Shown here: piece by piece, positions 1-45,700 of the stretch
How the letters are laid out: each line of letters opens with the position of its first letter
How positions within the stretch are numbered: the first letter of the stretch is position 1
Source: a virus
Lineage: Duplodnaviria > Caudoviricetes
Reading direction: 5' to 3' (one strand)
Virus record (IMG/VR): IMGVR_UViG_2595698952_000001
Location: 96,001-160,000 of that record
Length of the DNA: 64,000 nt
Notes under the pieces: model-generated
What the model was told of the DNA's origin: nothing
The model's input: only the letters and a program-made list of their open reading frames with translations
Databases searched by the model: none
Program-made: the position numbers and the translations under genes

Positions 1-2
1 AG

Positions 3-413
3 TTCCTGAATCATCAGCGCAACACTTTACATATCGACAAAGCCGTCGTTCCGGAATTGTCAATTGAAAAGCTGATGGCAGGTAACCGTGTAGCGGTGGC
101 AATGGAGTCAGGCAGCCCGGTGGGTTACTGTCTCTACCGTATCATCGGTGGGGTGTTAAAGATTCGTACGATGTTTGTCAGTGAAGCCTATCGTCGTCGT
201 GGCTTCATGACGCAAATCCTCGATGCCCTGGGCAGCAAAGAGACGTTCCACCGCATTCATGCGGGCGTGTTTGCCAAAGAAGAACCAGCGGTCACGTTCT
301 TCAAAGCACGCGACTTCAACTGCGTACCCAGTCGTGACGGGGATTGGTTAGAAGTAGATAAATTCATCATCTCTGATGAAATTAAAGCTGAAGGCACTTT
401 AGCCGTGGCTTGA
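3..413 (+). CDS. GNAT-family acetyltransferase (5'-truncated by window edge)
   Basis: Frame is open from position 3. PVGYCLY...IRTMFVSEAYRRRGF matches the acetyl-CoA binding motif A (R/QxxGxG-like); AVTFFKARDF resembles the terminal GNAT motif. Confidence 0.75.
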   Translation, partial: FLNHQRNTLHIDKAVVPELSIEKLMAGNRVAVAMESGSPVGYCLYRIIGGVLKIRTMFVSEAYRRRGFMTQILDALGSKETFHRIHAGVFAKEEPAVTFFKARDFNCVPSRDGDWLEVDKFIISDEIKAEGTLAVA

Positions 414-419
414 TAACAC

Positions 420-478
420 AGCTCTCCTTTCGTATAGATATCCCCCGATAATCGTGGGAATTTTACGTTAGGAGAGCT
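420..478 (+). promoter_or_regulatory. Long imperfect hairpin sequestering the RBS of the next ORF
   Basis: AGCTCTCCT (420-428) pairs with AGGAGAGCT (470-478), CGTA (431-434) with TACG (464-467), with further inner pairing. The AGGAG SD lies in the 3' arm. Confidence 0.6.
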
Positions 479-482
479 ATTT

Positions 483-812
483 ATGTTAAACCGTCCTCAT
501 GTACCTGGCATCGACTCTAACGTTTGTTGGTCGGAATATGCGCGGGTCGTTCCGTTCCTTCAAGAGGCTAAAATGAAAGAGCCTGTTCACGTTAACGTCG
601 GTACCATTGGTCACGTTGACCATTCCCGTTCTGCGGTCTCTGCTTGTGTCGGTGGGGCTTTGGGTACACTCCCAACGGCTAACCCGTTTGAGTTCCGCCC
701 ATTACACAGCCAACCGCTTGTGCTGATTCATGCCAGTGAAATGGATAACTTGCTCTCCATGCTGGAAAACGGAATGTCCCTGCACGTCGAGGTACATCAC
801 CCCGTAGAGTAA
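483..812 (+). CDS. Small protein with EF-Tu N-terminal motif (alternative start ATG 573)
   Basis: AGGAG before 483 and GAGG before 573; encodes [12 protein letters not shown] at 588-623. Confidence 0.7.
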   Translation: [109 protein letters not shown]

Positions 813-1984: not shown

Positions 1985-2283
1985 CAGTGAGTTACCTGCG
2001 CTTAAAAGGCGGGTACGTTGAAGCACCACGTACCTGGAATCGACGGACCACGCTGTCGAATCTGGTCCACATGGCCTGCGGGTATCCTAAACGGACACCG
2101 ACTGAACCGGAGTTTATTCCGAATGTGCCGGAAGAGGTTTCAGCCTTACGTCAGGTCGTATTAGACCGTATCTGTGAAACGGTTGAGCACATCGCCCAAT
2201 CCGCATGGGCCCGCATCGCTCAGGAGAGCATTGATGTCACTCGAACTGATAGACGAGGCCGTTATCTCCGCAGACCTGTTTAA
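1981..2283 (+). CDS. Hypothetical protein
   Basis: ATGA coupling to the upstream gene; its 3' end overlaps the macrodomain gene by 50 nt. Confidence 0.55.
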   Translation: MTVSYLRLKGGYVEAPRTWNRRTTLSNLVHMACGYPKRTPTEPEFIPNVPEEVSALRQVVLDRICETVEHIAQSAWARIAQESIDVTRTDRRGRYLRRPV

Positions 2284-2734
2284 CGCGCCTGAGCGCTTCA
2301 AGGTCGTCACGGTAAACTGTGTGGGTGCAATGGGTGCGGGGATAGCGTTGGCCTGTAAGGAACGCTTCCCTGACCTTTACCAGCACTACCGTAAGCGGTG
2401 CTATGCAGGTGAAGTTGTGGTCGGTAAGGTGTACCTTTATTCCGATGAAGGAATCATACTCCTGCCGACCAAGACCCACTTTAAGTACAAATCCCAGGTT
2501 TCTTATGTTACTACCGGCGTTACGGCGTTGGCAGAACAAGGCGATGACTTAGAAGGTGGCATTGCAGTCCCTCCTTTGGGGATGGCGCACGGCTGGCTAA
2601 GCTTTAATGAACGGTGGGGTATTTACCAACACCTTCACAAAAGACTACACACAACGGAGCAACACTATCGATTATACCTACCAGCAAAACTATTAGCGGA
2701 AGCCGCAAGAGCTATCCCAAACGCTTTGAAATAG
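2234..2734 (+). CDS. Macrodomain ADP-ribosylglycohydrolase (DarG/TARG1-like)
   Basis: ADLF...VTVNCVGAMGAGIALACKERFP...LPTKTHF...IAVPPLGMAHG are diagnostic macrodomain motifs; AGGAG RBS before ATG 2234. Confidence 0.85.
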   Translation: MSLELIDEAVISADLFNAPERFKVVTVNCVGAMGAGIALACKERFPDLYQHYRKRCYAGEVVVGKVYLYSDEGIILLPTKTHFKYKSQVSYVTTGVTALAEQGDDLEGGIAVPPLGMAHGWLSFNERWGIYQHLHKRLHTTEQHYRLYLPAKLLAEAARAIPNALK

Positions 2735-42790: not shown

Positions 42791-45700
42791 ATGCTTCTCA
42801 TTAAGCAGTTTAACCAACGCTTCTCTGTGCGTAAAACGGATGAGTTCGGGAAACCGCGTATCATCCCGCTGGAGAAGTTGCAGATTCCGCGCGGGGCCGT
42901 TTTCCATACCATCGACCTTGACCAGGTCGTTCTGGCTCCGCCGGTCAGCACCCCGATTCTCCAGGACTTAGAAAAGCCTGCGCAGATTCGTCACCACTTC
43001 AAACTGCCTGAAGAAGGTATCTCTGGCCACCCACGCAATAAACCAGTGCAGGGGCAAGAGAAAGCGATTTTCCAGTACCACCGTGTGAACCGTAGTTTCC
43101 GTCGCCTGTCGTCTGACGCCCTGGTGCGTAAAGACCTGAAAACCCTGCTGATTGAAAACTACACCCCGATGCTGTCGCACTACATCTACCCGGACACGCA
43201 GCTGGCCTGGTATGACCGTCTGCGCAACATCATGGTCACCATGACCAACCAGTTCAAATACGATACCGCAGAGTACCTGCGTCAGAACTACTTCGTCATT
43301 GAGCTGGGTTCGACCCTGCCCTCCTTCAACAAATTCCAGACCACGTTTAACGACCGTGTGAAAACCAAACTGGAAAAGTTCCACGACTTCAACCTGTTGT
43401 GGCTGTTGGAAATCTTTGCCTGGGCGTACGGACATCAGAAAGACTCGCTGTTTGACGGTATGGACATTACCCAGCTGTCACGCATGAACTTCATCTTTAC
43501 CCACAACAGCGGCTTTACGTCGATGAACATGGGTCTGGTTGAGAAAATGCGTAAATCCTCTGGCGGGCGTCTGAGTGATGATCAGATGGGGCGTAACTTC
43601 TACAAGTCACTGGTACAGGTGATGACCCAGGCTCCGTCTGACGAGTACGAAGCCGAGTTCCTGACCCCGGAAGGTGAAGAACGTATCGTGACCCGTGACG
43701 AAGTCGAAGAAGACAACGTTGACCTGGTTGACGATAACGATGACGTGGATAATGAAGCGGACGTGCAGGACGATAACAGCTTCGATGAAAAAGAAGACCT
43801 GGTTATCGAAGCACCGAAAGAAGACATCAAAGCCACCACTATCGTTGTTGAGAAACACATTGCTCACGACGAAGTGATTAAGCAGGAAGTGAAGCGTCTG
43901 GCTGAGGCTGGACGCGTGACGTCGAAAGCGTACCAGTTCCTGTCTGATTCTTCGCAACGTTTCGTCAATCTGCCGAACCCGTACAACCCGAAAGAAACCT
44001 ACGGCCAGGCTTTGACCATCGACGTGAAAGACATCGAAGTCAAAGCCAAACCGAAAAAGATTGAGCGTCTGGTCACAGACGAGGCCTGGTTTGAAAACAC
44101 CAACGACCAGGTTATCTCCCAGTATAACAAGACCATGCTGCCGAAAGACGTCTTGTCCGCCGTAGCATCAACCCAGCGCCTGGGCTTGGCGATTCACAAC
44201 CACACGGTAGAGAAAGAAAACACCGTGACCGGTAAAGTGGAACACCACACCCTGCGCATTCAACCTATCGGTGGCGAACCGACCACTATCCGTTTCTCTA
44301 TCCCGTCGTTAACTGAAGACGGTACCTGGGTGGCGAACGGTGTGGAATACACCATGCGTAAGCAGCGTGTTGATTTGCCAATCCGTAAGGTTGCCCCGGA
44401 TACGGTTGCCCTGACCACTGCGTACGGCAAGAACTTTGTACGCCGCAGTGATAAAGTGGTAAACGATTACGGGCGTTGGTTGACGAATGCGATTATCACG
44501 CGTGCCGTTGACCCGAAAAACACCGAAGTGACTGATGCCAAACTGGCAAACGTGTTCGACCCTCTTCTGACGCTGCCACGTCAATACACCGAAGTGGCAC
44601 GGCGTGTAGCAACCTTCAATGCGATGGGCTACATGTGGAGTTTCGATTACAAAATGCGTGACACCTTCTTTGACAGTGATCAAATCGCCGACGCGGACCG
44701 CGCCAAACTGATCCCTGTTGCGAAGAAAGCGCGTAGCGAAATCATTCTCTGCATGGACGACAAGTCGCAGATGTACAAGGTCAAAGAAGACCAAGTCGAA
44801 CCGCTTGGCACCTTAGCTGAAATGCTGGGTGTTGATGAATCCAAAGCACCGCGTGAAATGACCGAACTGTCGCTGATGGGCAAGTCTGTTTCGCTCGGCT
44901 TCATCTTCTCCTTCTACCTTGGGTTGCAGGGGGCGTTGAAACACTTTGGTATCCAGTACGAACTCGTCCCGGCGGGTCAGCGTGTGGGCAAGTCGCAGTA
45001 CGACAGTATCATCCGTCTTCAAGATGCGAAGATTCTGGTGAATTGCGATAACGACCAGCAACGCATGATTCTCAACGGTCTTGACCGTTATTTGAAACAC
45101 CTGACTGCCTACACCGAGTCAGAAGTCGAACGTGAAGACATTTACCTGAACCTGTTACGTGATGCAGATGGCCTGACACCTCGGTACATCAAAGAGCTGA
45201 AACAAATGCGGACCGCCTTTGTTGACGACATGCACGCCCGTATCCTCAGGAAGATGGGTGAGCCGGAAACCTTTATCGGCTTGCTGGAACGTTCCAACGA
45301 AATGCTTCAGACCGACCAGACCTTGCCGGAAATCAACGGTGAGGAAATGATGTTCATCGGGAACCAGCGTATTGCGTACCACATCTATACCGCAATGGTG
45401 CGGGCGATGCGTAACTACAATAACGCACCGGGTGCGAACCGTAAGTTCGAACTGACGCAGGACATGATTTGGGGGGCTATTAACTCCGATCCGTCTGTGC
45501 TGTTGGCACCAGGGGCTAACCCGATTCAGAGCATCAAAGAGAAGGACGTGGTGACGATGGGCGGTACCGGTGGTCGTAACCGTAAGACCATGGTGTACCA
45601 CACCCGTGAGTTCCAGCCGTCTGACCTCGGTATCGTGTCGGGTAACACGGTCGATAACGGGGACGTAGGTATCACCGCGTTCTTAACCAACAACCCGGCT

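Follow-up and report, generated by a model that had tools for sequence, protein, structure and literature searches.

Viruses are known to mimic short linear motifs (SLiMs), whereby a short host sequence is shown on viral scaffolds and occupies the host protein that binds it (PMC10132805). Elongation factor Tu (EF-Tu) is contacted at several described sites: the type IV Thoeris caspase is reported to cut it after R45 and R59, and to be promiscuous (10.1101/2024.10.24.620036), while Avs7 is reported to bind domains II and III (PMC13581612). Methylation of EF-Tu is described at K5 and K56 (PMC13288928). Acetylation of Ser1 is described for RimI, which reads the first residues of its substrates (EF-Tu and S18), and these start with a small residue followed by a basic one (PMC9079301). 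In eukaryotes, Chp1/Ypl225w is described as a ribosome-associated chaperone of nascent eEF1A (PMC11790920, PMC10869706), and the main text of PMC11790920 names no bacterial counterpart. In the literature searched, which covered few subscription papers, no description was found of the motif considered here or of phage EF-Tu mimics, nor of a bacterial factor that reads a buried EF-Tu strand.

The window analysed here is a stretch of 64,000 nucleotides from an Asesino/SPN3US-like jumbo phage, with 81% DNA identity to Asesino across its first 8 kb. The ORF at 483-812 on the plus strand is a genuine gene, which in its long form (from ATG 483) encodes a mini-protein of 109 aa belonging to phrog_12626. 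Searches with tblastn find it in 75 phage records, 45 of them at E 4e-9 or better, and no paralog was found in the 243-kb phage genome. The gene comes after a GNAT acetyltransferase gene in all four relatives' records examined first, and it lies in a series of small accessory genes that includes a DarG-like macro domain. This stand-alone domain (window 2234-2734) is similar to the N-terminal portion of the antitoxin DarG (110.6 bits, below the cut-off of 250), lies 1.4 kb downstream of the mini-protein gene and occurs nearby in the examined relatives too. It is a possible anti-DarTG gene. The parts of the mini-protein gene and its upstream region are listed in Table 1.

Table 1. Coordinates of features in and around the mini-protein gene (positions in the window).
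Feature	Position	Strand	Details
GNAT acetyltransferase gene, 3' part	1..413	+	163 aa; start upstream of the window at genome position 95922; phrog_3810
Conserved RNA hairpin	420..478	+	3' arm 470-478 holds the Shine-Dalgarno of ATG 483; 5' arm 420-428
109-aa mini-protein, phrog_12626	483..812	+	dN 0.113 / dS 0.98 vs Asesino gp213
Clade-specific N-terminal leader module	522..560	+	predicted helix; invariant C15, E18, Y19, R21, L26
Internal Shine-Dalgarno 564-567 and ATG 573	564..575	+	second start, giving a 79-aa form
EF-Tu residues 11-22, exact copy	588..623	+	strand beta-1 and first half of P-loop; invariant core NVGTIG 594-611
Decayed EF-Tu GKT motif and helix A	624..665	+	P-loop Lys and Thr lost
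Variable C-terminal part	666..809	+	mostly missing from SPN3US-type orthologs

Within ORF 483-812, positions 588-623 encode twelve residues that are identical to residues 11-22 of enterobacterial EF-Tu (tuf loci L027 and L030), as the first-pass annotation of this DNA had recognised. The number of copies of this 12-mer expected by chance is 9e-11 for six frames of the 243-kb genome, or 4e-8 if any EF-Tu window is allowed, and a degenerate version of the motif was matched by none of 100 shuffles of the window. The same annotation had held that nothing else of a GTPase follows the SRS that stands in place of the P-loop GKT. The GKT and the later G motifs are indeed missing, but the homology runs past the 12-mer. 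Residues 33-73 align to positions 9-49 of TIGR00485 (E 8.9e-6), and an HHalign comparison of the family profile with the EF-Tu profile extends over residues 28-78 (98.3%); a decayed helix A is thus present after the motif. A profile of the mini-protein also matches EF-Tu chains in the PDB (E 1.5e-8). Judged by these alignments, the segment is a descendant of the EF-Tu N-terminus, comprising strand beta-1, the P-loop and a decayed helix A. A C-terminal likeness to EF-Tu residues 55-70 was rejected, as it is not conserved in the family.

Comparison with bacterial EF-Tu (TIGR00485, PF00009) over residues about 9-38 shows what is shared, namely the 12 identical residues and a recognisable helix A. 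Bacterial EF-Tu has the P-loop Lys and Thr, motifs G2-G5 and domains II and III, whereas the mini-protein (109 aa, against 394 aa) has none of these and is therefore not a GTPase, in agreement with the earlier view of the motif as non-catalytic. It scores below the cut-offs of the GTPase families (24.7 bits against 522.4 for TIGR00485; 11.7 against 26.5 for PF00009), and the SRS itself is variable among orthologs (pN/pS 0.75). The label ‘putative elongation factor Tu’ that two relatives, ChrisDB gp215 and Huxley gp203, carry in GenBank is an over-annotation in both cases. Genuine full-length EF-Tu genes do occur on phages, and the same DNA patterns detect both kinds on large viral contigs. However, phage-borne EF-Tu keeps its G motifs and has about 390 aa, while the mini-protein carries a fragment on an unrelated scaffold. 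Many large viral contigs (L008, L009, L039-L041 and others) hold full-length but divergent EF-Tu genes in which the N-terminus is shortened and the switch I region altered. Three PHROG families are relevant here, all of ‘unknown function’: phrog_12626 is the mini-protein family, phrog_28329 is its short SPN3US-type form, and phrog_27465, a lambdoid nin-region family, has only the motif in common with the mini-protein. None of these families treats the motif they share as a unit of its own.

Purifying selection at the protein level holds the core of the captured segment, and the sequence on either side of it diverges. This can be seen in a codon alignment of 14 syntenic orthologs (the window and 13 picked for diversity from the 45 strong records, whose pairs are non-independent), where the eight residues His36-Gly43 have pS 0.69 and pN 0.017, that is, pN/pS 0.025, against 0.34-0.75 in seven other regions of the protein (0.34 for HVDH and 0.75 for the former GKT). 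The sole invariant run among the 14 aligned proteins is N38-G43 (NVGTIG), and H36 and C55 are nearly invariant in the family. The match of twelve residues noted earlier is therefore exact in this phage, but the selected core is shorter, as HVDH, the second half of the 12-mer, differs between orthologs. The same core emerges without use of the motif. A profile of residues 1-34 only, run against 1.84 billion representatives, gave nine matches, comprising six family members, two unrelated repeat proteins and one scrambled read. NVGTIG is kept in five of the six family members, the sixth being a Wellington-type leader-only ORF.

The motif recurs on unrelated phage proteins. A degenerate pattern for NVGTIGH(V/I)DH gave at least 101 matches in IMG/VR. 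Among the 101 matches listed, 51 are GTPases with G3 in frame, 11 are cut by a contig end, one is frameshifted and 38 lie in other ORFs, including one broken tuf. Control patterns of similar length from other EF-Tu segments behave differently: for G3, none of 66 matches falls in other ORFs, all 66 being in intact, truncated or frameshifted EF-Tu; for helix A, the count is 4 of 64, and all four keep the beta-1 motif as well; and for switch I it is 3 of 52. The copied switch I segment occurs alone in the unrelated phage ORFs of L447, L468 and L460, and together with the beta-1 motif in L006, L166 and L219. Since it spans the caspase site and the Lit site, copied switch I is a better candidate decoy for those proteases.

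For clustering, hand-picked GenBank carriers were added to the IMG/VR set, and four pattern matches without a usable ORF were left out, along with broken tuf copies. The resulting 54 motif contexts (matches listed and hand-picked carriers) fall into 33 clusters after motif masking. As a few of these clusters are probably kin, about 30 unrelated phage proteins carry the motif. Carriers are found in lambdoid, T4-like, nucleus-forming and Vibrio/Pseudomonas phages, and include lambdoid nin-region genes, T4-like Muldoon, PaBG, Dolphis, and Vibrio and Shewanella phages; a match in PspYZU05 was dropped, as the motif is absent there. The position of the motif is free: it can be N-terminal, internal, or no more than 13 residues from the stop (L151, L180), and these last cases indicate that helix A is dispensable. 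The first ten motif columns of this cross-scaffold set were fixed by the search pattern. Beyond the searched columns, the P-loop Lys is kept in 16 and the Thr in 11 of 33 scaffolds, against 100% and 98% of 53 EF-Tu sequences, and a proline stands directly before the core in 4 of 33 scaffolds and in two family members. The motif outlives its flanks in separate lineages, and the retained portion differs by lineage: HVDH drifts in this clade and is kept in many others, which is partly an effect of ascertainment. Some carriers have extra domains, namely SEC-C in L166 and L196, YbcO in one case, and one weak Gp23 match (L005, E 0.007). In the latter, Serratia phage Muldoon gp23 (L005:1698-2123), the weak match to the Gp23 major capsid protein is joined to the EF-Tu motif. 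A SecA-type SEC-C motif is added in L166:718-1656 and L196:1348-1593, and L166 has a peptide deformylase domain too.

Outside phages, a search for the motif without the P-loop Lys in 185,579 prokaryotic genomes gave 29 matches, nearly all of them error-bearing or broken tuf. The Arg variant had four matches in metagenomes, two SPN3US-like and two in faulty tuf. A small ORF in an Afifellaceae genome (L505) joins a signal-peptide-like leader to EF-Tu residues about 1-23, and the motif also lies outside tuf in L501 (an Rhs-like protein) and L508; each of these bacterial cases could be an assembly error. Taken together, the motif is real, selected and widespread, and apparently undescribed.

The expression of the mini-protein gene may be tied to its setting. 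Directly upstream is a hairpin (-34.8 kcal/mol, z -5.6) that starts 6-13 nt past the GNAT stop in 16 of 16 loci, and 7 nt past it in the window. Its 9-bp outer stem is 98.3% paired across 13 distinct sequences, against 44-57% in slid controls, and three pairs show two-sided changes, which are confined to two lineages. The Shine-Dalgarno of ATG 483 has a pairing probability of 0.75-1.0 in all 16 loci, and this start is the sixth most stable among the 208 gene starts of the genome. Other starts in the genome with a fully paired Shine-Dalgarno are at 45127, 186655, 200192 and 3760, several of them in terminator-like hairpins. From the presence of a hairpin that hides the Shine-Dalgarno within the ribosome footprint of the GNAT stop, we infer translational coupling with the GNAT gene. 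A promoter inside the hairpin loop is a weaker alternative. The late-promoter TATG considered in that reading is taken from PMC4666361; this 4-mer occurs in 12 of 16 hairpin loops and is absent from the loop in this window. On removal of the 5' arm of the hairpin, the Shine-Dalgarno is still 0.27-0.91 paired.

A second start within the gene had also been proposed. As reported, a GAGG (564-567) stands five bases upstream of ATG 573, and this internal Shine-Dalgarno and ATG are found in 13 of 16 loci, the exceptions being three SPN3US-type loci that have the fused form only. In Wellington and SNUABM_11, the internal start is in a different frame from the leader and begins a motif ORF of its own, whose upstream part has diverged. 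Leader and motif thus occupy separate ORFs in these phages, which indicates that in the mini-protein gene a leader module has been fused to a motif ORF. It is plausible, going by these start signals, that both the 109-aa and the 79-aa products are made. In Wellington (L511:1-818), two neighbouring acetyltransferase-like genes, not one, lie 5' of the hairpin. In the SPN3US literature, gp191/gp192 are absent from the supplement of PMC7411985, and no description of gp192 was found in a search that covered few subscription papers.

The upstream neighbour is a GNAT, as first annotated (PF00583, E 1.3e-8), and its 50 near-full-length orthologs are all in SPN3US/Asesino/Machina/Wellington-type phages. 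Within this clade, its linkage to the mini-protein gene holds in the loci examined, as GNAT, hairpin and leader module occur together in 16 of 16. Elsewhere it does not hold: the 106 ORFs that neighbour other carriers, at 32 loci, include no match to a GNAT family, so carriage of the motif does not require one. The link is clade-specific, and in this clade it looks like expression coupling. The earlier proposal that the GNAT might acetylate the mini-protein, by analogy with RimI, fares poorly. The enzyme scores 16.6 bits against the RimI model TIGR01575 (cut-off 86.4), and the protein starts with MLNR in its long form and MKEP in its short form, neither of which fits a RimI-substrate N-terminus.

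We propose that the mini-protein serves as a linear mimic, by which a host factor that recognises EF-Tu in an exposed state, whether nascent, unfolded or clipped, is kept occupied, and we give this proposal an even chance of being right. A 5' piece of tuf would have been captured and grafted behind the clade-specific leader module, and would then have decayed save for the EF-Tu beta-1 sequence, which may now be displayed as a short linear motif. Once EF-Tu has folded, strand beta-1 lies buried in the middle of the G-domain sheet; its reader must therefore meet EF-Tu when it is nascent, unfolded or clipped. The long form would be made when ribosomes ending the GNAT gene open the hairpin, and the short form could begin at ATG 573. 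This host reader would belong to an immune or protein quality-control pathway; as its competitor or decoy, the mini-protein would keep it engaged and so protect the infection. Selection for exact side chains, including polar ones, on scaffolds with or without the helix, fits a partner that reads sequence. In an AlphaFold2 model, residues 33-52 have pLDDT <50 and no secondary structure, which hints at exposure of the motif, and does so weakly because the model was built on 10 sequences and has a mean pLDDT of 52. A role as a plant elicitor (elf18/elf26), which the first-pass annotation had evoked, is unlikely, since some of the carriers are phages of Vibrio and Shewanella that come from sea water and sea ice.

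A further possibility, which we consider distinctly improbable, is that an undescribed bacterial sensor reads the first strand of nascent EF-Tu as an abundant, short-lived sign of ongoing host translation. Phage shut-off would remove this signal and trigger defence (‘missing self’), and many phages, each on its own, would have captured the strand to quiet the sensor. If this were true, the peptide would serve to fish out either a new class of immunity that monitors translation or a bacterial equivalent of the eEF1A co-translational chaperone.

In two other readings, no such reader is involved. The module might dock into EF-Tu itself, or another translational GTPase, by replacing the native beta-1 strand in nascent or protease-clipped EF-Tu, and so tune or poison host translation. 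A slot in the G domain would demand exact EF-Tu side chains, across 33 scaffolds the hydrophobic positions of helix A are at least roughly as conserved as the polar ones (Leu in 17 of 32, plus four Ile), and defence proteases clip EF-Tu just past the copied segment. Yet several carriers stop right after the motif or have no helix, the loss of the GTP-binding Lys and Thr would put a clipped factor beyond repair, and a strand supplied in trans would be expected to compete poorly with a covalently linked one; we regard docking as unlikely. Much the same doubt attaches to a purely structural role, in which the captured strand-loop-helix is a building block (a self-pairing strand, an oligomer interface, or a phosphate or metal site) with no mimicry. 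Such a role gains from the invariant leader residues (C15, E18, Y19, R21 and L26) and from H36 and C55, which hardly vary; between them, these residues might build a small fold or a metal site. A building block should nevertheless tolerate conservative swaps, and the polar residues are fixed, N in 32 and T in 33 of 33 scaffolds (counts that are biased by the search pattern) and both in all family members found without the motif. Furthermore, leader and motif are separate ORFs in Wellington-type phages, and the predicted structures, which are poor models, contain no confident fold. If the role were only structural, the motif would be a case of protein-fragment recycling.

Other readings draw on the neighbourhood and on known biology. 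That the mini-protein is a substrate, adaptor or inhibitor of the adjacent GNAT is very unlikely: the constant company of GNAT, hairpin and leader is of a kind that often marks partners, but this clade shows broad conservation of gene order in any case, the other carriers have no GNAT nearby, the enzyme is not RimI, neither start yields a suitable N-terminus, and any partnership would more likely run through the leader module. We give very little credence to a decoy for a described EF-Tu-directed system (Lit, Doc, the Thoeris caspase or Avs7). The first-pass annotation had already remarked that Lit and Doc act at other sites; the Lit cut site, in switch I, and the site of Doc both lie outside residues 11-22, as do the published contact sites of the other systems. 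Switch I, the rarer copied segment, is the cut region of the caspase and of Lit, stands alone in 3 of 52 control matches and accompanies the motif in three carriers, and a DarG-like macro domain lies close by; however, the mini-protein has no recognisable copy of switch I. A neutral relic of tuf capture, or chance, is extremely improbable. Several prophage-like contigs have the 5' end of tuf at their very edge (a contig end cuts 11 of the 101 matches listed), which offers an easy route for capture. Against this stand core synonymous sites near saturation with the amino acids fixed, which largely refutes such a reading, and a motif that outlasts its flanks in separate lineages.

The linear-mimic reading gives the locus its wider interest. 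Repeated capture of the same six to ten EF-Tu residues points to a host factor that reads a hidden part of EF-Tu, for which the motif would be a ready-made bait, and the clade offers both a genetic model (SPN3US gp192) and natural variants in which NVGTIG, the core, can be told apart from the other residues. New here are a core defined without use of the motif, the controls with other EF-Tu segments, the evidence from split genes for a second start, the Shine-Dalgarno-hiding hairpin and the clade-specific GNAT link, along with a correction of ‘elongation factor Tu’ annotations in phage genomes. With respect to known systems, described SLiM mimics copy disordered, exposed motifs of eukaryotes, whereas the segment copied here comes from a bacterial enzyme, in whose folded form it is a buried strand, and its binder is a putative one. 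The closest precedent for a dedicated reader of the unfolded G domain of an EF-Tu homolog is Chp1/Ypl225w, which is, however, eukaryotic, and whose contact is modelled at the switch region (PMC11790920).
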